From Phycisphaerae bacterium (lineage in GTDB: Bacteria > Planctomycetota > Phycisphaerae > SM23-33), in assembly GCA_049510055.1 (NCBI GenBank), contig JBEKZI010000002.1, forward strand, positions 17,132 to 81,131: a DNA stretch of 64,000 nucleotides. Direction: 5' to 3'. Below are positions 6,325 through 63,703 of this stretch, piece by piece. A model generated the notes under the pieces. That model saw only the letters and a list, made by a program, of their open reading frames with translations, was not told the origin of the DNA and ran no database searches. A program made the translations under genes and the position numbers. The number at the start of each line of letters is the position of its first letter. The stretch's first letter is position 1.

Positions 6325-7101
6325 ATGACGCAGGCGAGTCATCACGCCAAAGTCATCGTGGAGCGCACCGTCGAGCAGGCCACCGCGACGGCGGCGGAAC
6401 TGTTCAAGACGATCATCTGCGAGGCGGTGGGGCATCGCGGCGTCGCGCACGTCGCCCTGGCCGGCGGCACGACGCCCCACGCGCTGTACCAGATACTGGC
6501 CGCCGGCGCCACCAGCGGCCAGATTCCCTGGCGGAAGGTGGAAATCTTCTTCGGCGATGAGCGCGACGTGCCGCAGGACCACGTCGAGAGCAACTACGGC
6601 ATGGCCCAGCGGAACTTGCTGGACCACGTGCCCATCGACCTGGCCCGCGTCCATCCCATGCCCGCCGACGCCGACGACATCCAGGCCGCCGCCCGGCAAT
6701 ACGAGCAGGACATCCGCCGCATCGTCCCGGCCGACGGCGGCGACGTGCCGCGCTTCGACCTGATCCTGCTGGGCATGGGCGGCGACGGCCACACGGCCAG
6801 CCTGTTCCCCAACACCGACGCCCTGAAGGAACACAAGCACCTGGTCTACGCCGGGTTCGTGCCGGTCCTGGGCCGCAAACGCATGACCTTCACCTACCCG
6901 CTCATCAACGCCGCCCGGCACGTGGTTTTCCTGGTCACCGGCAGCGACAAGGCCGAGGCCGTGCTGGGCGTGCTGGGGGAGAGCGAGGACATCCGCAAGC
7001 AGCTCCCCGCCGCGGCCGTCCACCCGGCCCACGGCGCCCTGACCATGATCCTGGACGCCGCCGCCGCACGCCTCACAGGCATCGCCCCGGCTGGGGCGTA
7101 A
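6325..7101 (+). CDS. pgl: 6-phosphogluconolactonase
   Basis: Pgl/DevB-like sequence (ALAGGTTP...LLGMGGDGHTASLFP). It is in frame inside the long read-through ORF 5803..7101, and the true ATG is at 6325, just after zwf. Confidence 0.9.
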   Translation: MTQASHHAKVIVERTVEQATATAAELFKTIICEAVGHRGVAHVALAGGTTPHALYQILAAGATSGQIPWRKVEIFFGDERDVPQDHVESNYGMAQRNLLDHVPIDLARVHPMPADADDIQAAARQYEQDIRRIVPADGGDVPRFDLILLGMGGDGHTASLFPNTDALKEHKHLVYAGFVPVLGRKRMTFTYPLINAARHVVFLVTGSDKAEAVLGVLGESEDIRKQLPAAAVHPAHGALTMILDAAAARLTGIAPAGA

Positions 7102-7216
7102 CCACATGCGGGGCGGGTGCCACGGCAGCGTTTCTTGCTGCCGTGTGAATGAATTATAGAGAGGTTTGCACGGCTGCACACAACACAGCCGTGGCACCGT
7201 GCAGAAAGGGTGATTT

Positions 7217-7870
7217 ATGGCTGCACATCTTGATACGCGACGGGCGAGACTCTACGGACGGGGATTTCGGTGGACTACGTCGACACGCTTCTGGACAACA
7301 GTAGTTAGCATGTGTGTTGTTCCGCTTGGTTTTCTAAGTCCCATAGACTGTTCGCGATGGACTGGGAAAGAAGAGCCTCCCCCTATGCCGCCGGTAGTTA
7401 TTGCCGTTGGTTGGAGTGCGGTTCTGTCCAACACAAGCGATCTTCCGCTAGGCATCGGTGGCGAACTTATGACTTGGTCAGCTAAAGCACCTCACCATAC
7501 TGAGATACGTATGCTTTACGAAGGAACAGTCGAGGGCCACCCTGCCAAAGGGTACTCGGTGTGGGCCGATAGCAACGCTGGTCCAGCGAGTAAAGAAGTA
7601 TACCGCGTTCTTTGCTCAGTGGTCAGGGAAGAGGGGCATCCGATAGTCGTGATCGAAGGGACTTCCGAAGTCGCCTGGCAACTTAAGGTTACCGAAGAGG
7701 GGAACAATGTAATCGTAGCCCAACAAGGGGATAAGGAGTCGGCTCTGCCGCTTGACCTACAGCCGGGACCGTTCCATATCAGGATTGAAGCTCGCGAGCA
7801 GAAGGAAACGAAGCAGAACCCTAGCTCGATGCCGCTTCCTACAACCGATCGATCTTCGCCGCCAGGATGA
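7217..7870 (+). CDS. hypothetical protein (low-GC orphan ORF; start uncertain)
   Basis: 217-aa ORF in a region whose GC drops to roughly 50%, against about 68% in the flanks. No recognisable domain was found. An internal start such as MPPVVIAVGW is possible. The 3' end overlaps the convergent PCD gene by about 30 bp. Confidence 0.35.
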   Translation: MAAHLDTRRARLYGRGFRWTTSTRFWTTVVSMCVVPLGFLSPIDCSRWTGKEEPPPMPPVVIAVGWSAVLSNTSDLPLGIGGELMTWSAKAPHHTEIRMLYEGTVEGHPAKGYSVWADSNAGPASKEVYRVLCSVVREEGHPIVVIEGTSEVAWQLKVTEEGNNVIVAQQGDKESALPLDLQPGPFHIRIEAREQKETKQNPSSMPLPTTDRSSPPG

Positions 7871-12530: not shown

Positions 12531-12629
12531 GCGACTTTCCGTAGCCCTCCGTCCGTGCGGGGGCGGTTCGTTAATAGAAATGCCGTGCAACTTCGCGTCG
12601 AAACTCCGCGACAGGGGCCCGCCAAGCAG

Positions 12630-12745
12630 GCCAGCTCCAGCCAGGTTGCCCTCCGGCACACGCCGACGAATCGCTTATGGCTGCTTCCTTCCGGACCTGA
12701 CCAGGTTCACGCGTCAACGTTGCAGAGGACCCAGCCTTCAACGCT
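12630..12745 (-). ncRNA. ffs: signal recognition particle RNA (small 4.5S type)
   Basis: The minus strand reads ...GCAACGUUGACGCGUGAACCUGGUCAGGUCCGGAAGGAAGCAGCCAUAAGCGAUUCGUCGGCGUGUGCCGGAGGG... This contains the universally conserved domain IV (CCUGGUCAGGUCCGGAAGGAAGCAGCCA, GGAA tetraloop), identical to the E. coli 4.5S core. The gene lies immediately upstream of dnaX, as in many bacteria. The ends are approximate. Confidence 0.75.
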
Positions 12746-13010
12746 ACCTGAGCGACGGACTGGTCCCGCCACTGAGGCCCTCGGCGAAGCATTCGGTCCC
12801 GCACAAGCGGATTTCGGGTCATCCCGATTGCTCGGGAATCAGGGCACCGCTAGCGCCCCACCTAGCACGGCGAGGCCATCATATCCAGGCCGGGACGGGG
12901 GAGCAAGACACGCGGGGGAAAAGATATCCGCAGAATGTCGCTATTACGGCAGCAGCGGTACCACACGTGATCAGAATGGCCTGATTTTATCCGCTGCTTT
13001 GGGGCACTGG

Positions 13011-33584: not shown

Positions 33585-33657
33585 GGGCAGGTAGCTCAGC
33601 CGGTAGAGCACATGACTGAAAATCATGGTGTCGGCGGTTCAATTCCGCCCCTGCCCA
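33585..33657 (+). tRNA. tRNA-Phe (anticodon GAA)
   Basis: 73-nt cloverleaf. Acceptor stem GGGCAGG/CCTGCCC, D-arm GCTC-AGCCGGTA-GAGC, anticodon stem-loop CATGA-CTGAAAA-TCATG, and T-arm GGCGG-TTCAATT-CCGCC. CCA is not encoded. Confidence 0.95.
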
Positions 33658-43618: not shown

Positions 43619-44218
43619 AAAATTTCTTGACAGGGAGTGATGCACGCCGCTAAAGTTCTTTTCGTTGCAGGTGCCCGCAAGGGCCAACAGGGAAGGCCGT
43701 GAAAGTCGGCCGCGGACGCGCCGCTGTAACCGGCGACGACCGCCGCACGTAAGGCCACTGTCTCGACGCGTGGTCGGGATGGGAAGGCGCGGCGGAAGGA
43801 CGACCCGGGAGCCAGAAGACCTGCCTGCAACCAACCTGGTTGAGCCTCCGCGAGTCATCGGCTGACCGGATCGTGTTTTCTGACGCACGATGCCCCGGGG
43901 CCGCGGCGGACGCGAGGTTCCGGGGTTTTTCATGTGCGGCATGGCCGAGACGCGAACCGCTGGCCCGCCCAACGCGGCATTCGCCCGCCCGGCCTTCGCC
44001 TCCAATCCCCGACAGGTTGCCGATGGACCGGCCTTGCGCCCGGGCTCGCCCATCAGCCGCCATCCGGTGCGATAAGGGAAGGATCGAAAGGAACTCCAGG
44101 AACTTTAAAGAGTCGACACTGTGGTTTTGGTATGCACGCACGTCCCCCTGGCCTCTGGTCAGGGGGCAAGGAAGGCGGCGGCCGATGGGCCGCCCGAGAA
44201 GCTCGAAAGGATTGCATC

Positions 44219-51909: not shown

Positions 51910-53471
<1,562 letters not shown>

Positions 53472-55382: not shown

Positions 55383-55644
55383 GCAAATCATGTAGCGTAC
55401 CAGTGTTTGAGGAGACGCGGTACGCAAGCCAACAAGTCTCTTAGGAGGAGACTAAACGGCACCCGGATCGGTGATGATTTTGGGTTGGCCGCATCGGCAC
55501 ATAACGCTCAAGACAAGCGAGTGCCGCCGCTGATGAGAATCTACACGAAAAACAAGCATGAGTGTGCTTTGCGTGTAGTCACTCCGCAAAACGTAAGGTA
55601 GGGATCAACCCCCCCTAAAGCGAGAGAAGAAGGAGAGAGGCATT

Positions 55645-56391
55645 ATGAAGAAGTTAGTGGTAGCGAGTTTGGTTCTTGGATTATGTGTGGTGGCCGCGCA
55701 GGCCGGTCCGATTACGAGGACCATCAGCTACGTCGGCACCTATACGGTCACAGGCGACACCGGCACTGCCAACGTCAGCGTGTATAACATCACGGAGTAT
55801 AGCACCGCTCCCAACACGACGTTCCAGACTGTCGTGGACATGACGTTTGGAACGGCTGCGGGCCAGGGCGGTCAAAACCCGTTCCAGGCTGCCTATACCA
55901 CCAAGACAAAGGTGGGCGGCGTCTGGACGTATCCGGTGAACTTGACCCCCACGGAAGACTCTGACTCGTACTGGGATCCGAACGACGGGAGCCACATCTA
56001 CCAGTCCGATTCCCGGTTTATGCCCTCCAGTGCCAATCCCAGCGACCCGTGCGGCGGCATCGAGAACTGGCTGGCCATCCAAGCCCCGACCGAGACGAAC
56101 GATCGGTCTATCGATCCGAACAACGCCGTGTCCGATGACATTGTTCTGGGCAAGGGCGGCCTGAGCACGATCTCCGCGATTCCGGTGCCGATGCAGAGCG
56201 GCTCTTTGCAACTGCTCGTTGCCAGGATCGGCGTCGTGGCGGGAGACACGGTGTGGGGCCTGGACCAGTCGGCGTACTATGACGGCATCGCCGACAGGTC
56301 GCTCAATGAAACGTTTATAGTCCCTGAACCGGCGACGCTGGCATTGCTGGGACTGGGCGCTGTGGCCCTGATTCGTCGTCGCAGAGGCTAG
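55645..56391 (+). CDS. PEP-CTERM sorting-domain protein, paralog family A (copy 1)
   Basis: Signal peptide MKKLVVASLVLGLCVVAAQA. Conserved core includes DPCGGIENWLAIQAPTETND. C-terminus is VPEPATLALLGLGAVALIRRRRG. Confidence 0.85.
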   Translation: MKKLVVASLVLGLCVVAAQAGPITRTISYVGTYTVTGDTGTANVSVYNITEYSTAPNTTFQTVVDMTFGTAAGQGGQNPFQAAYTTKTKVGGVWTYPVNLTPTEDSDSYWDPNDGSHIYQSDSRFMPSSANPSDPCGGIENWLAIQAPTETNDRSIDPNNAVSDDIVLGKGGLSTISAIPVPMQSGSLQLLVARIGVVAGDTVWGLDQSAYYDGIADRSLNETFIVPEPATLALLGLGAVALIRRRRG

Positions 56392-56447
56392 CCGCAAGCC
56401 GCCAATAGATTCAAGAACCTGACTCTAGCAGCAGTGGGGTTGACCCC

Positions 56448-56483
56448 CTAAGGGCCTCGGTTATGCCGAGGCCCTTAGCTTTT
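56448..56483 (+). terminator. rho-independent terminator
   Basis: TAAGGGCCTCGG-ttatg-CCGAGGCCCTTA followed by GCTTTT. Confidence 0.6.
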
Positions 56484-56638
56484 CCAGGTGTTTATTCTCA
56501 AGACATTTCTATCCGCAACACTAGCTTTGAAAAGCAGTTGCGCTTGCATGGCTTGATGATCCGAAGTCGGGCCTGTGCCTCCAGTTTTGCAAGGCGGTGA
56601 CATTCCTGTGAAATTGAGGGGGGATGTCCGTTTTGTTC

Positions 56639-56667
56639 TTGACAACCCGGCCGTTTGCCTATAGTAT
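56639..56667 (+). promoter_or_regulatory. sigma70-like promoter (TTGACA-N17-TAGTAT) for paralog 2, giving a leader of about 190 nt rich in GGAGC motifs
   Basis: Near-consensus hexamers. The leader contains at least 7 GGA motifs (CGGAGCAGGAGCCGACGGAGCAC, UUGGAGCG, AUGGAGCC, AAGGAGCG, AGGGAGCA, plus the SD GAAGGAGAUA). Confidence 0.5.
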
Positions 56668-56859
56668 CCCTAATGTAGTGTCCGAACGGAGCAGGAGCCG
56701 ACGGAGCACCTCTCCTGAGCTTAAGTTGGAGCGTTTTCCCTAACTGTTGCATGGAGCCGTTGTTAAGCCTAAGGAGCGCCCCTTTAACAATGAAGGCAAG
56801 GACTATTTTTCCCTCGTAAGGCAGGGAGCAACCCCCCTAATGTGATGAAGGAGATAGGT

Positions 56860-57600
56860 ATGAAAAGGATGCTAGTAGCGAGTTTGGTTCTTGGACTATG
56901 TGCCGTGGTGGCACACGCTGGCCTTGTTATAACGGTTACCAAGGTCGGCAGCGCACTGACGGTCCAGGGTGATCAAGGCTCTGCCGTCGTTGATGTGTAT
57001 GACATCACGATATCGAGCCCCAATGCCAATACGTTCGAGACCACCGTGGACATGACGATCGGAGCAGCCACGGGCAAGGGTAGCGATCCGTTCCAGGCTG
57101 CCTATACCACCAAGACGAAGGTGGGCGGCAAGTGGACGTATCCGATTAACCTGACCCCGTCGGAAGACTCTGATTCGTACTGGGATCCGTGCGATGGCAG
57201 CAACATCTACCAGGCCGATTCTCGGTTCCTTCCCTCCGCCGCGGATGCCAATGATCCGTGCGGCGGCATCGAGAACTGGCTGGCCATCCAAGCCCCGACT
57301 GAGACGAACGATAAGTCTATCGATCCCAATCGGGCCATTGCCGATGACATTGTTCTAGGCAAGGGCGGTCTGAGCACGATCTCCGCGATTCCGGTGCCGA
57401 TGCAGAGTCCTTCTCTGCAACTGGCGGCTGTCCGGGTCGGCGTTGTTCAAGGCACGCAGGTTTGGTGCCTGGACCAGTGCGCGTGGTATGACGGCGTGGC
57501 AGACCAGAGCGACAACGTTACCTTTATGATTCCCGAGCCGGCAACGCTGTCTATGCTGTGCCTGGGCGCTTTGGCCCTGATTCGTCGTCGTAGGAGCTAG
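56860..57600 (+). CDS. PEP-CTERM sorting-domain protein, paralog family A (copy 2)
   Basis: MKRMLVASLVLGLCAVVAHA...IPEPATLSMLCLGALALIRRRRS. It is about 75-85% identical to copy 1 over the core. Confidence 0.85.
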   Translation: MKRMLVASLVLGLCAVVAHAGLVITVTKVGSALTVQGDQGSAVVDVYDITISSPNANTFETTVDMTIGAATGKGSDPFQAAYTTKTKVGGKWTYPINLTPSEDSDSYWDPCDGSNIYQADSRFLPSAADANDPCGGIENWLAIQAPTETNDKSIDPNRAIADDIVLGKGGLSTISAIPVPMQSPSLQLAAVRVGVVQGTQVWCLDQCAWYDGVADQSDNVTFMIPEPATLSMLCLGALALIRRRRS

Positions 57601-57668
57601 CCACAAGGCTATAGATTCGAGAGCCTACTCACAGAATGCATCTACATGATCGTGGGGTTGTACCCTTT

Positions 57669-57702
57669 AGGGCCTCGGCAAAACCGAGGCCCTTGTTTTT
57701 TT
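57669..57702 (+). terminator. rho-independent terminator
   Basis: AGGGCCTCGGC-aaaa-CCGAGGCCCT followed by TGTTTTTTT. The stem sequence is shared with the terminator at 56448. Confidence 0.65.
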
Positions 57703-57748
57703 GCGAGGGGCGTGGCCGGGAGACGGTGCCATCGCAGCAGGGGGGAAA

Positions 57749-58069
57749 TTAGAAGTGCAGGGCCAGAGGTTGGGTGAACTGCACGGCCAGGCCCACGGTC
57801 GCCCCGTCCAGCTCCTCCATGCGGGTGATGCATCCGCTGCCGCGCACGGCCCCATCGCGGCTGGAGTGCCCTCCTCCGGCTGGGACGGCCAGGATGAAGT
57901 CCAGCGGGCTGCCCGCGGGGGGCGCCTCGGCGGCCGGAATGCGAAGGTACATGCCTCCCGAGGAGACGTTGCCCGTGACCCAGGGGCCTGAGGAGGGAAG
58001 CCGGCCGGCGCCCGAAACGGACCAGTGCAGGGGCAACCGCCGATGTTGGCGGCGTTCGGTGTTTGCCAT
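57749..58069 (-). CDS. PilZ domain protein (putative c-di-GMP receptor)
   Basis: 106 aa. The ATG at 58069 is preceded by a GGAGAG SD. PilZ signature motifs RRQHRR (RxxxR) and NVSSGG (D/NxSxGG) are present. Confidence 0.6.
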   Translation of the reverse strand: MANTERRQHRRLPLHWSVSGAGRLPSSGPWVTGNVSSGGMYLRIPAAEAPPAGSPLDFILAVPAGGGHSSRDGAVRGSGCITRMEELDGATVGLAVQFTQPLALHF

Positions 58070-58288
58070 GGCGATCTCTCCTTGGGACGAGCAGCCTCGG
58101 CCACAGTCAGCCGATAGGAAGGATAGCACCCTACCCCTGCCGGAGGCAAGGGCCTCCTATAAGCAAGGCATTCCGGAGAAAGTGGGGGAGTTTTCCTGAA
58201 TTTCTTCCCAGTTCCCTCAGGCGTGCTTGGCGAAACGGCTGTTTTGGGGTATACTGTAACCCCAAGGCGTAAGGAGGATGGGCCGGAG

Positions 58289-59185
58289 GTGGACGGCGTG
58301 CGGAGGTGGACGCAAATAGTTTGTCTTGTCGTTTTGACGGCGTCCCCGGCGTGGGCGGCGACGCTGACGTTGACGTTGGCTCAGCCGACGCTCGGGCAAT
58401 GGGAGGTCTTCGGCCAGCTCAGCAACAATACCGACAACGACGGCCTGTCCAGCCTCATCATCAATGTCCAGGCTGTCGGCGGTGACGTGGGCGTCAGCTC
58501 CTCCCTGAACGATTTGCCCCACGGCACGCACTACTATTTGCTGGACGGCAATGTGCAGTCGCAGCTCGTCGGCTTTACCGAGTTCCGCAGCGACGGCAAC
58601 AGCGGCATCGGCATCTGCGCCGGCCAAAAGACGACCTCTCTGGGACAGGTGGTGCTGACGGACGTGGGCTACTCCGCCGGCAGCACGCCCGGCGACCAAA
58701 CCGGCCTGGGGCTGGGACCGACGCAGATCTCCTGGTCCGCCCCCCTCCTGATCGCCAGCGGCTCCTACAGCGGGACGTATGGCACGTTGTCGGTGGCGGT
58801 GGGGGCGGGGCAGGTCAACGTGCTGAACGAAGGCCGCAACCCCGCTCAGACCGGCGGCGTGCACAAGATCGAGAGCGTCGTGAGCGGCTCACTTCGAATT
58901 TACCACGTCGGCGACGCCACGGGCGATGACAAGGTCGACAGCAACGACTTTGGCGCGCTAGCCAGAAACTGGCTGCAAAGCGGCAAGACCTGGGCCGACG
59001 GCGACTTCAACGGCGATGGCGTCGTGGACGGCACGGACTTCGGCGCGTTGGCCCGCAACTGGGGCTGGTCGGCGTCGGCCTCCATGTCCAGCGCGACGGC
59101 GGCTACGCTCCCCGAACCGGCCACGCTGGCCTTCCTGGGCCTGGGCGCCATGACGCTGCTCGTCCGCGGCCGGCGCAGCCGCTGA
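58289..59185 (+). CDS. PEP-CTERM protein with dockerin-like repeats (paralog of 44219..44920)
   Basis: A GTG start at 58289 lies 12 nt after an AAGGAGG SD. Signal peptide is VRRWTQIVCLVVLTASPAWA. Repeats are DSNDFGALARNWLQSGKTWADGDFNGDGVVDGTDFGALARNW. C-terminus is LPEPATLAFLGLGAMTLLVRGRRSR. Confidence 0.75.
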   Translation: MDGVRRWTQIVCLVVLTASPAWAATLTLTLAQPTLGQWEVFGQLSNNTDNDGLSSLIINVQAVGGDVGVSSSLNDLPHGTHYYLLDGNVQSQLVGFTEFRSDGNSGIGICAGQKTTSLGQVVLTDVGYSAGSTPGDQTGLGLGPTQISWSAPLLIASGSYSGTYGTLSVAVGAGQVNVLNEGRNPAQTGGVHKIESVVSGSLRIYHVGDATGDDKVDSNDFGALARNWLQSGKTWADGDFNGDGVVDGTDFGALARNWGWSASASMSSATAATLPEPATLAFLGLGAMTLLVRGRRSR

Positions 59186-59338
59186 AAATCAGCCCACCCG
59201 CTTATCCTCCTCCCCCCAAAAATACATCACACGCAAGTGCTTTTGAGCTTGATTTTTAGGTGCTTTAGTGATATAGCATCCTTCATCTAAGGGCGTGGAG
59301 CGCACACCTGAACGCCAAAGGAAGGAAGGGGTTGTCTC

Positions 59339-60088
59339 ATGAAAAGAATCCTTATTATCAGTTTAGTTCTTGGGTTATGCGATGCGGCGTCGCAGGCCGG
59401 TCTGGTTATAACGGTCGATAAGGTCGGCACCTATACGGTTACGGGCGATACCGGCTCGGCCCTCGTGGATGTGTATGACATAATCATGTCGAGCCCCAAT
59501 GCCAACACGTTCCAGACGACCGTGGACATAACGTTTGGGACGGCTGCGGGGTATGGCGGTCAAAACCCGTTCCAGGCTGCCTATACCACTAAGACGAAGG
59601 TGGGCGGCAAGTGGACGTATCCGGTGAACCTGACCCCCTCGGAAGATGCCGACGGGTATTGGGATCCGTGTGACGGCAGCAACATCTACCAGGCCGATTC
59701 TCGGTTCCTGCCCTCCAGCGCCGACGCCAACGATCCCTGCGGCGGCATCGAGAACTGGCTGGCCATCCAAGCCCCGACCGAGACAAACGATGGGTCCATC
59801 GATCCGAACAACGCCGTGGCCGATGACATTGTCCTTGGCAGGGGCAGCCTGAGCACGATCTCCGCGATTCCGGTGAAAATGCAGAGTCCCAATCTTGTGC
59901 TGCCAGTTGCCAGGATCGGTATCGTGCGGGGAGACGTGGTCTATGTCAAAGACGAATGTGCTTACTATGACGGCATCGCAGACCGGTCCGATATTCCGGG
60001 GTTTGTCTATGCTCCTGAACCGGCCACGCTGACCTTCCTGGGCCTGGGCGCCGTGACGCTGCTGGCCCGCCGCCGGCACGGCCGCTGA
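59339..60088 (+). CDS. PEP-CTERM sorting-domain protein, paralog family A (copy 3)
   Basis: MKRILIISLVLGLCDAASQA...APEPATLTFLGLGAVTLLARRRHGR. Confidence 0.85.
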   Translation: MKRILIISLVLGLCDAASQAGLVITVDKVGTYTVTGDTGSALVDVYDIIMSSPNANTFQTTVDITFGTAAGYGGQNPFQAAYTTKTKVGGKWTYPVNLTPSEDADGYWDPCDGSNIYQADSRFLPSSADANDPCGGIENWLAIQAPTETNDGSIDPNNAVADDIVLGRGSLSTISAIPVKMQSPNLVLPVARIGIVRGDVVYVKDECAYYDGIADRSDIPGFVYAPEPATLTFLGLGAVTLLARRRHGR

Positions 60089-60223
60089 AAATCCGCCGGC
60101 CGCCGGCAATACGTTGACATACATGAAAGCACCTGGAAGCATAACTTTCAGGTGAGGTAGCTTTCCAACCATCAAGGCGTGTGGAGCACACACCTAAAGC
60201 GCAGGAAAGGAAGGGGTTTGGCC

Positions 60224-60997
60224 ATGAAACGAATCCTTATTATCAATTTGGTTCTTGGGTTATGCGCTGCGGCGGCGCAGGCCGGGATCATGTGGCCGGT
60301 CTTGACCGGACCGATTACTATCACGATGGAAAAAGTCGGCACCTATACGGTTACAGGTGACACCGGTTCCGTCATTGTCAATGTGTATGACATGACGATG
60401 TCGTGCCGTAATCCCAACACGTTCCAGACCGTCGTGGACTTGACGATTGGGTCAGCTTGCGGCCGCGGTGATGACCCATTCCAGGTAGGCTTGGTGAACA
60501 AGACGAAGGTCGCCGGCAAGTGGGCGTATCCGGTTGCCCTGACCCCCACCGAAGACGACGATGCCACCTTCTTTGACCCCAATGACGGGACCAACCAGTA
60601 CCAAGCCGACTCGCGGTTCATGCCCTCCAGCGCCGATGCCAACGATCCGTGTGACGGCATCGAGAACTGGCTGGCCATCCAACGGCCGACCGAGACGAAC
60701 GATGGGTCTATCGAGCCGAACACCGCTGTCCCGTATGCCTCCGTCCTGGGCAAGGGCAGCATGGAGGTGATCGCCGCGATTCCGGTGGTGATGCAGAGCC
60801 CTAATCTAAAGCTGAAGGTCGCCCGGATTGGTATCGTGCAGGGAGACATGGTCTATTTCGAAGACCAGTCTGCTTACTATGACGGCATCGCAGACCGGTC
60901 CGATATTCCGGTGTTTCTCTGTGCTCCTGAACCGGCCACGCTGGCCTTCCTGGGCCTGGGCGCCGTGACATTGCTTCGTCGCCGCCGCGGCCGCTGA
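60224..60997 (+). CDS. PEP-CTERM sorting-domain protein, paralog family A (copy 4)
   Basis: The ATG at 60224 (MKRILIINLVLGLCAAAAQA) lies within the ORF 60179..60997. C-terminus is APEPATLAFLGLGAVTLLRRRRGR. Confidence 0.85.
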   Translation: MKRILIINLVLGLCAAAAQAGIMWPVLTGPITITMEKVGTYTVTGDTGSVIVNVYDMTMSCRNPNTFQTVVDLTIGSACGRGDDPFQVGLVNKTKVAGKWAYPVALTPTEDDDATFFDPNDGTNQYQADSRFMPSSADANDPCDGIENWLAIQRPTETNDGSIEPNTAVPYASVLGKGSMEVIAAIPVVMQSPNLKLKVARIGIVQGDMVYFEDQSAYYDGIADRSDIPVFLCAPEPATLAFLGLGAVTLLRRRRGR

Positions 60998-61132
60998 GAA
61001 TCCGCCGGCCGCCGGCAATACGTTGACATGCGCGAAAACACCTGAAAGCGTAACTTTCAGGTGAGGTAGCTTTCCAACCATCAAGGGGTGTGGAGCACAC
61101 ACCTAAACCCCACCAGAGGAAGGAGTTGTATC

Positions 61133-61900
61133 ATGAAACGAATCCTTATTATCAATTTGGTTCTTGGGTTATGCGCCGTGGCGGCACAAGCCGGGATCAC
61201 GTGGAATGTCTTGACCGGGCCGATTAATATCACGATGGAAAAAGTCGGCACCTATACGGTCACGGGGGACAGCGGTTCCGCCATTGTCAATGTGTACGAC
61301 ATGACGATGTGGTGCCGTGATCCCAACACGGTCGAGACGGTCGTGGCCTTAACGATTGGGTCGGCCACGGGCGCGGGTAGTGATCCGTTCCAGGCTGCCT
61401 CGGTGTACAAAGCAGGTAGCAAGTATCATATCGGGTTAACTCCCGTGGAAAGTGCTGACGAGACATTTTTGGATCCGTGCGACGGGAGCAATGCCTACCA
61501 GGCCGATTCCCGCTTCATGCCCTCCGGTGAGTATACCGATCCCAACGATCCGTGTGACGGCATCGAGAACTGGATGAACCTTCGAGTGCCGACCGAGACG
61601 AACGATGGGTCTATCGACCCCAACCAGAATGTGGACGGTGACATGATGCTGGGTAAGGGCGGTATGGAGGTGCTCGTCGCGATTCCGCTGGCAATGCAGA
61701 GCCCTAATCTAAAGCTAAAGATCGCCCGGATTGGTATCGTGCAGGGAGACATGGTCTATTTCCAAGACCAGTCTGCTTACTATGACGGCATACGTGACTT
61801 GAGCGAGTACACAGCGCCGATTCTTGTTCCCGAACCGGCGACGCTGGCCTTCCTAAGCCTGGGCGCCGTGACATTGCTTCGTCGCCGCCGCGGCCGCTGA
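61133..61900 (+). CDS. PEP-CTERM sorting-domain protein, paralog family A (copy 5, most diverged)
   Basis: ATG at 61133 (MKRILIINLVLGLCAVAAQA). The central region is diverged (AASVYKAGSKYHIGLTPVESADETF). C-terminus is VPEPATLAFLSLGAVTLLRRRRGR. Confidence 0.85.
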   Translation: MKRILIINLVLGLCAVAAQAGITWNVLTGPINITMEKVGTYTVTGDSGSAIVNVYDMTMWCRDPNTVETVVALTIGSATGAGSDPFQAASVYKAGSKYHIGLTPVESADETFLDPCDGSNAYQADSRFMPSGEYTDPNDPCDGIENWMNLRVPTETNDGSIDPNQNVDGDMMLGKGGMEVLVAIPLAMQSPNLKLKIARIGIVQGDMVYFQDQSAYYDGIRDLSEYTAPILVPEPATLAFLSLGAVTLLRRRRGR

Positions 61901-61940
61901 AAATCCGCCGGCCGCCGGCAGCAAGTTAACGCACACAAAG

Positions 61941-61981
61941 GCACCTGGAAGCTTGACTTTCAGGTGCCTTTGATGTAATAT
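61941..61981 (+). promoter_or_regulatory. intergenic module: palindrome GCACCTGGAAG-CTTGAC-TTTCAGGTGC overlapping a near-consensus promoter (TTGACT-N17-TAATAT)
   Basis: A 9-10 bp inverted repeat (GCACCTGAA / TTCAGGTGC) brackets the -35 hexamer. The same module, with variations, recurs upstream of copies 4, 5, 6 and 7. Confidence 0.55.
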
Positions 61982-62037
61982 CCCTGCATATCAGGAGGGG
62001 GTGCTCCCCCCTAAAAAGAGAGGAAAGGGGTCGTGTC

Positions 62038-62793
62038 ATGAAAAGAATCCTTATTATGAGTTTGGTTCTTGTGTTATGCGCCGCGGCCGCGCAGGCTGGT
62101 TTGGTTTATACGGTTAATTATATCGGTGCCTATACGGTTACGGGTGATACCGGCTCGGCCCTCGTCGATGTATGGGACATCTATTCGTCGAGCCCTAATT
62201 CAAACACGTTCCAGACCACCGTGGACTGGACGTTTGGGACGGCCATAGGCGCCGGCGGCAATGACCCGTTCCAGGCTGCCTATACCACCAAGACGAAGGT
62301 CGGAGGCAAGTGGACGTATCCAGTGAACCTGACCCCCACGGAAGACTCTGACTCGTACTGGGATCCGTGCGATGGTAGCCACATCTATCAGACCGATTCC
62401 CGGTTTATGCCCTCCAGTTCCAATCCCAGCGACCCGTGCGGCGGCATCGAGAACTGGCTGGCCATCCAAGCCCCGACCGAGACGAACGATCGGTCTATTG
62501 ATTCCAATGAAGCCGTTGCCGATGACATTGTCCTGGGCAAGGGCGGCCTGAGCACGATCTCCGCGATTCCTGTGCCGATGCAGAGTCCTTCTCTGTACTT
62601 GCTCGTTGCCCGGATCGGCGTCGTGCGAGGAGACATGGTCGGGTGCTTGGACCTGAGCGCGTGGTATGACGGCATTGCCGACCGGTCGGATGATAACTTC
62701 TTTTGGTTATCTTATCCTGGACCTGAACCGACGACGCTGACCTTCCTGGGTCTGGGCGCCATAACATTGCTTCGCCGCCGGCGCGGCCGCTGA
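62038..62793 (+). CDS. PEP-CTERM sorting-domain protein, paralog family A (copy 6)
   Basis: MKRILIMSLVLVLCAAAAQA...GPEPTTLTFLGLGAITLLRRRRGR. Confidence 0.85.
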   Translation: MKRILIMSLVLVLCAAAAQAGLVYTVNYIGAYTVTGDTGSALVDVWDIYSSSPNSNTFQTTVDWTFGTAIGAGGNDPFQAAYTTKTKVGGKWTYPVNLTPTEDSDSYWDPCDGSHIYQTDSRFMPSSSNPSDPCGGIENWLAIQAPTETNDRSIDSNEAVADDIVLGKGGLSTISAIPVPMQSPSLYLLVARIGVVRGDMVGCLDLSAWYDGIADRSDDNFFWLSYPGPEPTTLTFLGLGAITLLRRRRGR

Positions 62794-62935
62794 AAATCAG
62801 TCGGCCGCCGGCAATACGTTGACATGCACGAAAGCACCTGAAAGCTTGACCTTCAGGTGCTTTCGTGATATAGCGCCCTTCATCTAAAGGCGCGGAGCAC
62901 ACATCTAAAAGCGCCAGGAAGGGAAGGGTTGGACC

Positions 62936-63703
62936 ATGAAACAAATCCTTATTATCAATTTGGTTCTTGGGTTATGCGCCGTGACAGCACAGGCCGCGCC
63001 CAGGCCGATCATGCCCGGACCGCTGAATATCTCGTTGGAAAAAGTCGGTACGTACACGGTGACGGGTGATACCGGCACGGCCAATGTGGATGTGTACGAT
63101 ATCATCATGTCGAGCCCCAATTTCAACACGTTCCAGACGACCGTAGACCTGACGATTGGAGCAGCCACGGGCCAGGGCTCCGACCCGTTCCAGGCTGCCT
63201 ATACCACCAAGACGAAGTACGGTGGCAAGTGGACGTATCCGGTTAACCTGACCCCCACGGAAGACGACGACGGGTATTGGGATCCGAACGATGGCAGCAA
63301 CATCTACCAGGCCGATTCTCGGTTCCTGCCCTCCAACGCGGATGCCAACGATCCATGCGGCGGCATCGAGAACTGGCTGGCCATCCAAACGCCGACCGAG
63401 ACGAACGATGGGTCCATCGAGCCGAACACCGCTGTCTCATATGCCTCCGTCCTGGGCAAGGGCAGCATGGAGGTGATCGCCGTGATTCCGGCACCGATGC
63501 GGAGCCCCTCTTTGCAGCTGCTCGTTGCCAGGATCGGCGTCGTGGCGGGAGACACGGTTTGGGGCCTGGACCAGTCGGCGTGGTATGACGGCGTGGCAGA
63601 CCAGAGCGATAGGGAGCTGTTTCTGATTCCCGAACCGGCGACGCTGGCCTTCCTGGGCCCGGGCGCCGTGACGCTGCTTACCCGCCGCCGGCACGGCCGC
63701 TGA
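62936..63703 (+). CDS. PEP-CTERM sorting-domain protein, paralog family A (copy 7)
   Basis: MKQILIINLVLGLCAVTAQA...IPEPATLAFLGPGAVTLLTRRRHGR. Confidence 0.85.
   Translation: MKQILIINLVLGLCAVTAQAAPRPIMPGPLNISLEKVGTYTVTGDTGTANVDVYDIIMSSPNFNTFQTTVDLTIGAATGQGSDPFQAAYTTKTKYGGKWTYPVNLTPTEDDDGYWDPNDGSNIYQADSRFLPSNADANDPCGGIENWLAIQTPTETNDGSIEPNTAVSYASVLGKGSMEVIAVIPAPMRSPSLQLLVARIGVVAGDTVWGLDQSAWYDGVADQSDRELFLIPEPATLAFLGPGAVTLLTRRRHGR

Follow-up and report, generated by a model that had tools for sequence, protein, structure and literature searches.

Leaders controlled by CsrA/RsmA are familiar from glgC and pgaA of E. coli and from hag of B. subtilis. Stabilizing stem-loops are found between genes and at the 3′ ends of messages, as exemplified by the REP hairpins of malEFG and the hairpin of the puf operon, and so-called I-shaped terminators lack a U-tract. 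Other stabilizing stem-loops are 5′-terminal, as in the 5′ UTR of ompA and in the aprE and ermC leaders of B. subtilis. The rule for a CsrA site is A(N)GGA presented in a hairpin (PMC10729762). For the cargo genes of PEP-CTERM/exosortase systems the only upstream site described is the sigma-54/PrsR motif, which goes along with PrsK/PrsR/PrsT and does not extend beyond Proteobacteria (Haft et al. 2006, PMC1569441).

The window analyzed here, a stretch of 64,000 nucleotides (64 kb) from a Phycisphaerae bacterium, contains seven paralogous PEP-CTERM genes of approximately 250 codons, each of which encodes a signal peptide and a PEP-CTERM tail. The locus gives three handles on the regulation of such genes in Planctomycetota: a family- and strand-specific leader motif; two neighboring paralogs, gA and gB, one with a long structured 5′ UTR and the other (gB) with a long unstructured one; and an intergenic hairpin that would have evolved after tandem amplification had removed the original terminator. 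The elements involved are new examples of ordinary kinds, namely a promoter, an intergenic stem-loop and a leader motif. The account which we prefer combines an amplified repeat unit, a large inverted repeat (HP2) that would act as a hairpin in read-through RNA, and a leader module that would be a factor-binding site. We put the probability of this account at about 45%, and all transcription start sites (TSSs) and 3′ ends in it are predictions.

Layout of the locus and origin of the array

The paralogs and the spacers in front of the array genes are located as follows.

55645-56391: gA, standalone paralog
56860-57600: gB, standalone paralog
59339-63703: tight array g1-g5
59339-60088: g1
60224-60997: g2
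61133-61900: g3
62038-62793: g4
62936-63703: g5
59186-59338: spacer u1
60089-60223: spacer u2, the copy that had originally been flagged
60998-61132: spacer u3
61901-62037: spacer u4
62794-62935: spacer u5

Canonical hairpin-plus-T terminators are present 3′ of both gA and gB. Between gB and the array lie a PilZ-domain gene on the opposite strand and then a dockerin/PEP-CTERM gene that ends at 59185. The neighborhood of the array encodes a PilZ protein, a 151-amino-acid protein without Pfam family, enolase and a DUF6768 protein; neither a helix-turn-helix protein nor another DNA-binding regulator is found among these neighbors, the conserved one being the PilZ-domain gene. The protein fold is confidently modeled as a β-sandwich (pLDDT 86.7) for which a comparison with the PDB returned no significant match (best E 4.5e-3, TM < 0.3) and no clue to regulation. 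DNA identical to that of the window is present on peat-metagenome contigs. The strain contigs L001-L006, L020 and L022 have spacers identical to those of the window and thus add no covariation data.

The sequence-only reading had described a module that is conserved in each spacer and consists of a GC-rich near-palindrome after the stop codon, a promoter, an inverted repeat around the −35 hexamer, and a leader with a hairpin and a Shine-Dalgarno (SD) sequence. Each of the four is found, although some copies lack one or another of them. The spacer of 135 bp unites the promoter, the leader and the junction from the duplication of one surface-protein gene, which was copied five times in the recent past. 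Jukes-Cantor distances among the spacers range from 0.14 to 0.52, compared with dS values of 0.38 to 0.69 for the genes of the array; within the repeat unit, blocks of identity form a mosaic as gene conversion would give.

A protein-based scan of species genomes revealed no relatives, a metagenome scan for relatives revealed one short contig, and a word-index protein search returned the organism's own paralogs only. Leaders for comparison were obtained from contigs of distant homologs, detected by an exhaustive profile search, and from loci anchored by synteny on the neighboring HAD hydrolase, which yielded three related loci; at E ≤ 1e-40 this hydrolase has 1319 homologs. The array is absent from L023, whose HAD hydrolase is 88% identical, and from L024; in both, the 151-amino-acid gene and enolase come immediately after the dockerin-type gene. 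At its 3′ end and flank the L023 dockerin gene aligns with the 3′ ends of g1-g5 and with the flank behind g5. The promoter embedded in the array, with its spacer GGTGYTTT.AGTG, has a homolog in TTGACA-17-TAGCTT located 5′ of the third L023 paralog (gene 6746-7429), where a GC palindrome also precedes the −35 hexamer. Absence of the array from L023 and L024, together with 3′ ends and a promoter homologous to those of L023, argues that the array is a lineage-specific amplification with the GC palindrome (HP1) at its junction, and we infer that HP1 is where the old 3′ flank meets the old upstream region. The array would have been inserted between the stop codon of the dockerin/PEP-CTERM gene and the old 3′ flank of that gene, and a spacer would accordingly read, in order, about 12 nt of old 3′ flank, HP1, an orphan TTGACA, HP2, the ancestral promoter and a leader of about 55 nt. 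The two short elements at the start of the spacer are these.

60095-60107, + strand: HP1 of u2, GCCGG-ccg-CCGGC, after the stop codon
61004-61016, + strand: HP1 of u3, likewise
61907-61919, + strand: HP1 of u4, likewise
62800-62812, + strand: HP1 of u5, likewise
60114-60119, + strand: orphan TTGACA of u2, starting 25 nt after the stop codon
61023-61028, + strand: orphan TTGACA of u3, likewise
61926-61931, + strand: TTAACG at the corresponding place in u4
62819-62824, + strand: orphan TTGACA of u5, likewise

The GC palindrome that had been noted after each stop codon is confirmed in u2-u5 and is absent from u1; its folding energy is −4 to −7 kcal/mol (−7.0 in u2). The orphan TTGACA has no −10 hexamer at 16-18 nt, and 7 of the 14 columns around it are variable.

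Since divergence is near-synonymous and two syntenic relatives are devoid of the array, most of the "conservation" of the spacer represents descent from recent tandem amplification. Control of the whole family had been proposed on the grounds of the shared module, much of whose similarity is simple descent. More generally, a "conserved intergenic module" within an array of paralogs is mostly inheritance, and a functional reading applies only to islands whose conservation exceeds synonymous divergence. Such islands exist in u2-u5, where HP1 has 2 variable columns out of 17 and the core arms of HP2 have 2 out of 20, together 4/37 compared with 54/92 elsewhere (including the stretch from SD to ATG with 14/20). 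Fisher's test gave p = 4e-7 when the two islands were taken together and 1e-4 for the core of HP2 by itself (2/20 versus 54/92), statistics that are weak because there are only four copies of HP2 and five of the leader, and all strain contigs are identical.

The position of HP1 at the amplification junction and its high conservation would suit a model in which HP1 and HP2 function as DNA, that is, as cruciforms or hot spots of recombination which cause array units to be gained and lost and hence the copy number of a surface-protein family to vary. Also consistent with this model are the strain contigs L002 and L006, which lack exactly g3; the crossover falls between a TGAG marker and GGCAGCAAG, in 19 identical bases that contain HP1. 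However, the position of the crossover depends on a single SNP, approximately 60 nt of identical coding sequence are found just upstream so that ordinary unequal homologous recombination suffices, and there is neither a recombinase gene nearby nor an attC-type core site (GTTRRRY), which leaves the hot-spot model very unlikely. An integron attC site was likewise rejected because GTTGACA misfits GTTRRRY, the "cassettes" are paralogs with an SD of their own, and no integrase is encoded nearby.

Promoters and the large inverted repeat HP2

Three array spacers contain sequences with the appearance of a promoter.

59249-59277, + strand: probable g1 promoter in u1, TTGATT-17-(TGa)TATAGC, read by eye
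61953-61981, + strand: sigma-70-like g4 promoter in u4, TTGACT-17-TAATAT, 9/12 in a consensus scan that no other array spacer passed
62846-62874, + strand: probable g5 promoter in u5, TTGACC-17-(TGa)TATAGC, read by eye outside the scan report

A promoter had been assigned to each spacer. It is clean in u4 and plausible in u1 and u5, whose −10 hexamers are devoid of the final T and which both have 17-nt spacing and a TGn extension, but it is lost in u3 and in the flagged copy u2. In these two spacers the hexamer homologous to −35 has become ATAACT and GTAACT (CATAAC and CGTAAC when read from the HP2 loop), and a common deletion of 6 nt shortens the promoter spacer. Genes g2 and g3 would probably be expressed by read-through from g1.

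As in the PEP-CTERM genes of Proteobacteria, a conserved upstream sequence is shared here, and most non-array copies are single-gene units. Unlike the proteobacterial site, which is a sigma-54 site at the DNA level, the array promoters look sigma-70-like and have no −24 GG/−12 GC. No match to the sigma-54/PrsR motif TGGCAC-N5-TTGCW was found in any array spacer at up to two mismatches, and a sigma-54 promoter was therefore rejected; the window as a whole contains 19 matches compared with a chance expectation of 31.

The copies of the large inverted repeat, HP2, are listed next.

59230-59272, + strand: degraded HP2 of u1, left arm decayed; eight central pairs, three of them G·U; −8.6 kcal/mol
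60130-60154, + strand: HP2 of u2, 10-bp hairpin CACCUGGAAG-cauaa-CUUUCAGGUG with one G·U pair; −13.0 kcal/mol
61039-61063, + strand: HP2 of u3, perfect 10-bp hairpin with loop CGTAA and no promoter; −13.5 kcal/mol
61933-61975, + strand: HP2 of u4, 16-bp stem, extendable beyond a bulge; −26.8 kcal/mol
62827-62867, + strand: HP2 of u5, perfect 16-bp stem, TTGACC contained in the 9-nt loop; −25.7 kcal/mol

The inverted repeat is real and far beyond chance, as its 25-nt core CACCTGRAAG-N5-CTTTCAGGTG matches four times in 64 kb compared with 0 expected. By contrast, the claim that it brackets the −35 hexamer holds for u4 and u5 only: in u4 the −35 hexamer TTGACT lies in and beside the loop and the 3′ arm of HP2 is the promoter spacer, whereas the u2 loop CATAA contains no −35 hexamer and the left arm of u1 is degraded. 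No relative possesses the left arm of HP2, which appears to be a new, inverted copy of the ancestral promoter spacer.

Folding of whole spacers gave z-scores of −3.85 for u4 and −3.92 for u5, with none of 200 shuffles folding as well. In the outer stem of HP2 three pairs differ between u4 and u5 on both sides, a result reached by 17 of 500 shuffles, and 80.6% of the cells pair, as opposed to 32-49% when the partner is slid by one to three columns; compensatory changes in the outer stem are thus shown. As to the strand, the sole variable position of the core is G·U or A-U on the + strand, which also accommodates the G·U pairs of u2 and u4. Although u1 no longer has the DNA palindrome, its eight central pairs are kept via the three G·U wobbles. 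An A·C mismatch in u5, however, would be a G·U pair on the opposite strand, which makes the strand evidence mixed, and the hints favor a + strand RNA hairpin weakly. Compensatory changes in a DNA palindrome may also arise unselected through hairpin-templated repair.

The sequence-only reading had interpreted the palindrome at −35 as the operator of a dimeric regulator and combined it with binding of CsrA to the GGA motifs of the leader loop and the SD sequence, the two acting on the whole family. An inverted repeat which is centered on the −35 hexamer in u4 and u5, with a 10-bp core that is nearly invariant, is what an operator would look like; yet the palindrome persists in the promoterless spacers u2 and u3, whereas u1 has a promoter without the DNA palindrome (and without an upstream paralog). 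Moreover, the outer arms are not fixed half-sites but covary when u4 is compared with u5, the stems reach 16-19 bp, and no DNA-binding regulator adjoins the locus. The operator reading is weaker than the CsrA reading taken up below, and the combined model is improbable.

It is rather doubtful, too, that the spacer has no function beyond that of a duplicated promoter, SD sequence and junction, with palindromes that are kept by hairpin-templated repair or gene conversion and leader covariation that is due to chance in G/C-rich sequence. The overall near-neutral divergence of the spacers, the mosaic of identity blocks that points to gene conversion, the resemblance of the HP2 left arm to an inverted copy of the promoter spacer and the mere four to five copies would all agree with this. 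It has to be set against the core of HP2, which is a conserved island with variable sequence on both sides (p = 1e-4, as given above) and has stayed intact in u2 and u3 despite decay of the promoter.

Returning to the preferred account, HP2 would act as RNA only in read-through transcripts coming from the upstream paralog because transcripts from the embedded promoters are predicted to start downstream of it. In such transcripts HP2 may constitute a 3′ hairpin without U-tract that stops or stabilizes the upstream message and shields the next promoter, and it may replace the canonical terminator which the amplified unit left behind. This replacement is plausible given that the non-array paralogs of the window and its relatives end in a conserved hairpin plus T-run whereas the array units do not. 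With −13 to −27 kcal/mol, HP2 qualifies as the GC-rich hairpin of an intrinsic terminator. No U-tract follows it, however (the tails are AGGTAGCTTT, TAATATCCCT and ATATAGCGCC), and a terminator scan which did find the gB terminator reports none here. Since the locus otherwise uses canonical terminators, efficient intrinsic termination at HP2 is doubtful; processing or stabilization is as likely as termination.

HP2 resembles the malEFG and puf hairpins and the I-shaped terminators in being stable and GC-containing, in its location between co-oriented genes and at the presumptive end of the upstream message, and in having no T-run. It differs from them in that its four copies in the 64 kb are confined to the array, that the loop of two of them (u4, u5) harbors the −35 hexamer of the next gene, and that its locus elsewhere employs canonical hairpin-plus-U terminators. 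A REP/BIME element was rejected because the four copies in the array are the only ones in 64 kb. A search of the locus, the spacers and the leaders against Rfam gave nothing at gathering score, and up to E = 10 it gave chance-level hits only, for example mir-87 on HP2 with 23 bits compared with a gathering score of 49.

Leader hairpins and the GGAGC...CCUAA module

Structures in the array leaders are the following, together with the SD sequence of the flagged copy.

59292-59316, + strand: leader hairpin of u1, GGCGU...ACGCC
60176-60202, + strand: leader hairpin of u2, slipped 4-bp stem GCGU/GCGC around GGAGCACACACCUAA (60183-60197)
61085-61111, + strand: leader hairpin of u3, GGGGU...ACCCC, with a C-G pair turned into G-C
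61997-62010, + strand: leader hairpin of u4, GGGGG-UGCU-CCCCC, like the hairpin of the non-array paralogs
62889-62915, + strand: leader hairpin of u5, GGCGC...GCGCC, with a U-A pair turned into C-G
60203-60216, + strand: purine-rich SD sequence of u2, AGGAAAGGAAGGGG, in front of the ATG at 60224

The stems GGCGU/ACGCC, GGGGU/ACCCC and GGCGC/GCGCC, which had been reported to co-vary between copies, are indeed present in u1, u3 and u5, whereas u2 has the slipped stem of 4 bp only and u4 a different hairpin. Co-variation itself is borne out: compensatory changes are present, all 24 of 24 cells of the 5-bp stem are paired, and 4 of 120 permutations of the 3′ arms equal this. The innermost pair is U-A in u1, U·G in u2 and C-G in u5. 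At another pair u1 has C-G where u3 has G-C, and a further change, from G-C to U-A, is seen in the homologous leader that belongs to the second paralog of L018. The leader hairpins are, however, not more stable than shuffles (z −0.5 to +1.0), a competing inner stem GUGUG/CACAC exists in the leaders of u2 and u3, and the minimum-free-energy fold chooses the originally proposed stem in u5 only.

A purine-rich SD sequence with GGA, as had been described, is present in every copy. The 3′ end of the 16S rRNA in the window reads CACCUCCUUUCU; in view of this tail the invariant C after GGAG argues against simple pairing with the anti-SD. A helix between CCUUC and GAAGG that sequesters the SD in folds of the full spacer was rejected because it would lie upstream of the predicted TSS and pyrimidine and purine runs pair trivially.

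The loop that had been regarded as a conserved sequence, GGAGCACACACCUAAA, is one instance of a recurring motif, GGAGC-N(3-13)-CYUAA, that is confined to PEP-CTERM leaders within the window: all six matches to GGAGC-N3-13-CYTAA (four in gB, one each in u2 and u3) are located there, as against 1.3 expected. The gB leader holds most of them.

56674-56859, + strand: 5′ UTR of gB; its seven GGAGC and its four GGAGC-N-CYUAA modules share the + strand

These GGAGC, seven within 150 nt, form the densest cluster of the window, in which the background is 1.6 per kb, and GCTCC does not occur among them. A related 20-mer, AAGGCAGGGA(GC/AU/UC)AACCCCCC, precedes the ATG by 25-35 nt in gA, in gB and in distant homologs on other contigs and metagenome-assembled genomes, and is near-invariant among genes whose products are only some 35% identical. 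It starts 7-10 nt after the −10 hexamer of a TTGACA-17-TAGTAT/TACTAT promoter in L018 and L019, and in L011 a GATAAT −10 hexamer sits 6 nt 5′ of it. In 13 such leaders from across the family, the predicted hairpin comes down to three invariant G-C pairs without covariation, and what is conserved is sequence rather than demonstrable structure. A coding or uORF function of the motif was rejected because the count of C is variable and L023 has not preserved the small ORF of the gB leader.

The leader findings bear on the two alternatives introduced above. If the spacer had no added function, z-scores near 0 for the leader hairpins and a family-wide hairpin without covariation would be expected; on the other hand, every substitution in the arms of the leader stem preserves pairing, GGAGC...CCUAA is strand-specific and peculiar to this family's leaders, and the 20-nt motif is near-invariant despite the low identity of the products.

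Binding of CsrA to the leader is possible. GGA occurs in four of the five array leaders and at every SD, and the seven GGAGC of the unstructured, conserved gB leader, five of them in A-N-GGA context, lend CsrA more support than was available when it was first suggested. CsrA/FliW has been reported for the phylum Planctomycetes (PMC4682653, PMC10729762), yet tblastn found no CsrA in the window and 27 loci (only noise with E > 0.1). Several features of the leaders likewise do not conform to CsrA sites: the invariant C after GGAG and the CCUAA partner are not CsrA features, the array loop measures 15-17 nt and the first G of GGA is paired in some predicted folds, in the array copies the base two positions before GGA is G instead of A, and GGA is missing from the loop of orthologous leaders in which that loop reads AAUAA or GAUAA. 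GGA at the SD is uninformative because any SD of the AAGGAG/GGAGG type contains it. The array leaders resemble CsrA/RsmA-controlled leaders in that GGA is found upstream of and over the SD, that one paralog leader carries several GGA-containing motifs roughly 20-25 nt apart, and that cell-surface genes are concerned; they are unlike them with respect to the combination of GGAGC with CCUAA, the 15-17-nt loop, and a GGA that straddles stem and loop.

The 5′-terminal stabilizers of ompA, aprE and ermC are matched in placement wherever a promoter can be recognized (L018, L019, L011, u1, u4 and u5): there the leader hairpin starts no more than a few nucleotides from the predicted TSS, and the SD follows it at a distance of 12-25 nt. 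Unlike those stabilizers, the leader hairpins are weak (−4 to −11 kcal/mol), no better than shuffles and conserved in sequence above pairing, and the motif of gA and gB is 150-200 nt away from the predicted promoter.

In the preferred account, the leader module would most likely serve as a strand-specific site at which a putative factor recognizes single-stranded RNA. The leader would offer a single GGAGC...CCUAA module, enclosed by the covarying stem, to this RNA-binding factor or to the ribosome, and the factor would set translation or mRNA stability. It is tempting to go further and speculate that GGAGC...CCUAA plus AAGGCAGGGA(GC/AU)AACCCCCC represents a new cis-regulatory RNA module peculiar to a rapidly evolving family of PEP-CTERM surface proteins in Phycisphaerae, that a dedicated CsrA-like or new RNA-binding regulator reads it and coordinates the paralogs, and that HP2 has a dual use, ending the upstream message as RNA and carrying the next promoter as DNA; we regard this extended version as tentative and on the unlikely side.

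The conserved 5′ UTRs of gA and gB are more promising leads than the array spacer. From the −35 hexamer to the signal peptide the gB leader is 90% identical to its L023 ortholog, compared with 36% identity of the proteins, and it folds worse than shuffles (z +1.5 and +2.0).

Paralog divergence and copy number of the array

The paralog region was compared between the window and the related loci L023, L024 and L026, which had been found via a neighbouring HAD hydrolase gene.

Window 55645–63703; L023 6746–9598; also L024 and L026: paralog region
57749–58069, minus strand: PilZ-domain gene (c-di-GMP-binding type)

The seven window paralogs, i.e. the stand-alone genes gA and gB and the array g1–g5, share 59–79% identity with one another but just 32–36% with the paralogs at the syntenic locus of a relative; the HAD hydrolases of the two loci are 88% identical. 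Conserved despite this divergence are the signal peptides and PEP-CTERM tails of the proteins as well as the UTRs and terminators. This is a pattern of concerted evolution. The PilZ-domain gene lies amid the PEP-CTERM paralogs in conserved synteny in the window, L023, L024 and L026.

Array copy number is polymorphic: g3 is exactly missing from two strain contigs (L002, 5984–6120; L006, 5994–6130; compared with window 60998–62037). At the junction in both contigs, the TGAG stop context of u3, the spacer ahead of g3, is joined to GGCAGCAAG of u4, the spacer ahead of g4, which points to a crossover inside 19 identical bases containing the GC palindrome HP1.

With the exception of the PEP-CTERM tail, the family proteins match no family in Pfam/NCBIfam. 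The AlphaFold model of the g4 protein (62038–62793), taken to represent the family, is a confident β-sandwich (pLDDT 86.7, pTM 0.79) for which a Foldseek search against the PDB returned nothing significant (best E 4.5e-3, TM < 0.3).

Untranslated regions of the non-array paralogs

55389–55650, plus strand: gA 5′ UTR (leader), 262 nt
56674–56859, plus strand: gB 5′ UTR (leader), ~190 nt
Window 56400–56490 and 57600–57705; also 3′ of paralogs in L011, L018, L023, L024 and L026: conserved 3′ UTR of non-array paralogs

The gA leader folds at −89.1 kcal/mol compared with −71.2 kcal/mol for shuffles (z −3.82), none of 200 shuffles being as good. All 76 predicted pairs are kept in the L023 ortholog, with two double compensatory and four wobble-compatible changes, and an Rfam search gave no match to this leader. 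The leader is a candidate for an undescribed structured leader RNA.

The gB leader folds more poorly than shuffles (z +1.5 and +2.0) and carries seven copies of GGAGC, a motif of the array leaders, all on one strand. Identity between gB and its L023 ortholog amounts to 90% in the leader and 36% in the proteins.

Common to the 3′ UTRs of the non-array paralogs is the motif ..gcatc..gatgcGGGGTT.aaCCC.., and they end in a terminator (AAGGGCCUCGG-loop-CCGAGGCCCUU) followed by a T-run. The array genes lack this conserved 3′ UTR and terminator.

Other RNAs in the window

Matches at the Rfam gathering level were obtained for four further RNAs.

51913–53470, minus strand: 16S rRNA
12583–12870, minus strand: large bacterial SRP RNA
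43652–43842, plus strand: cobalamin riboswitch
33585–33657, plus strand: tRNA
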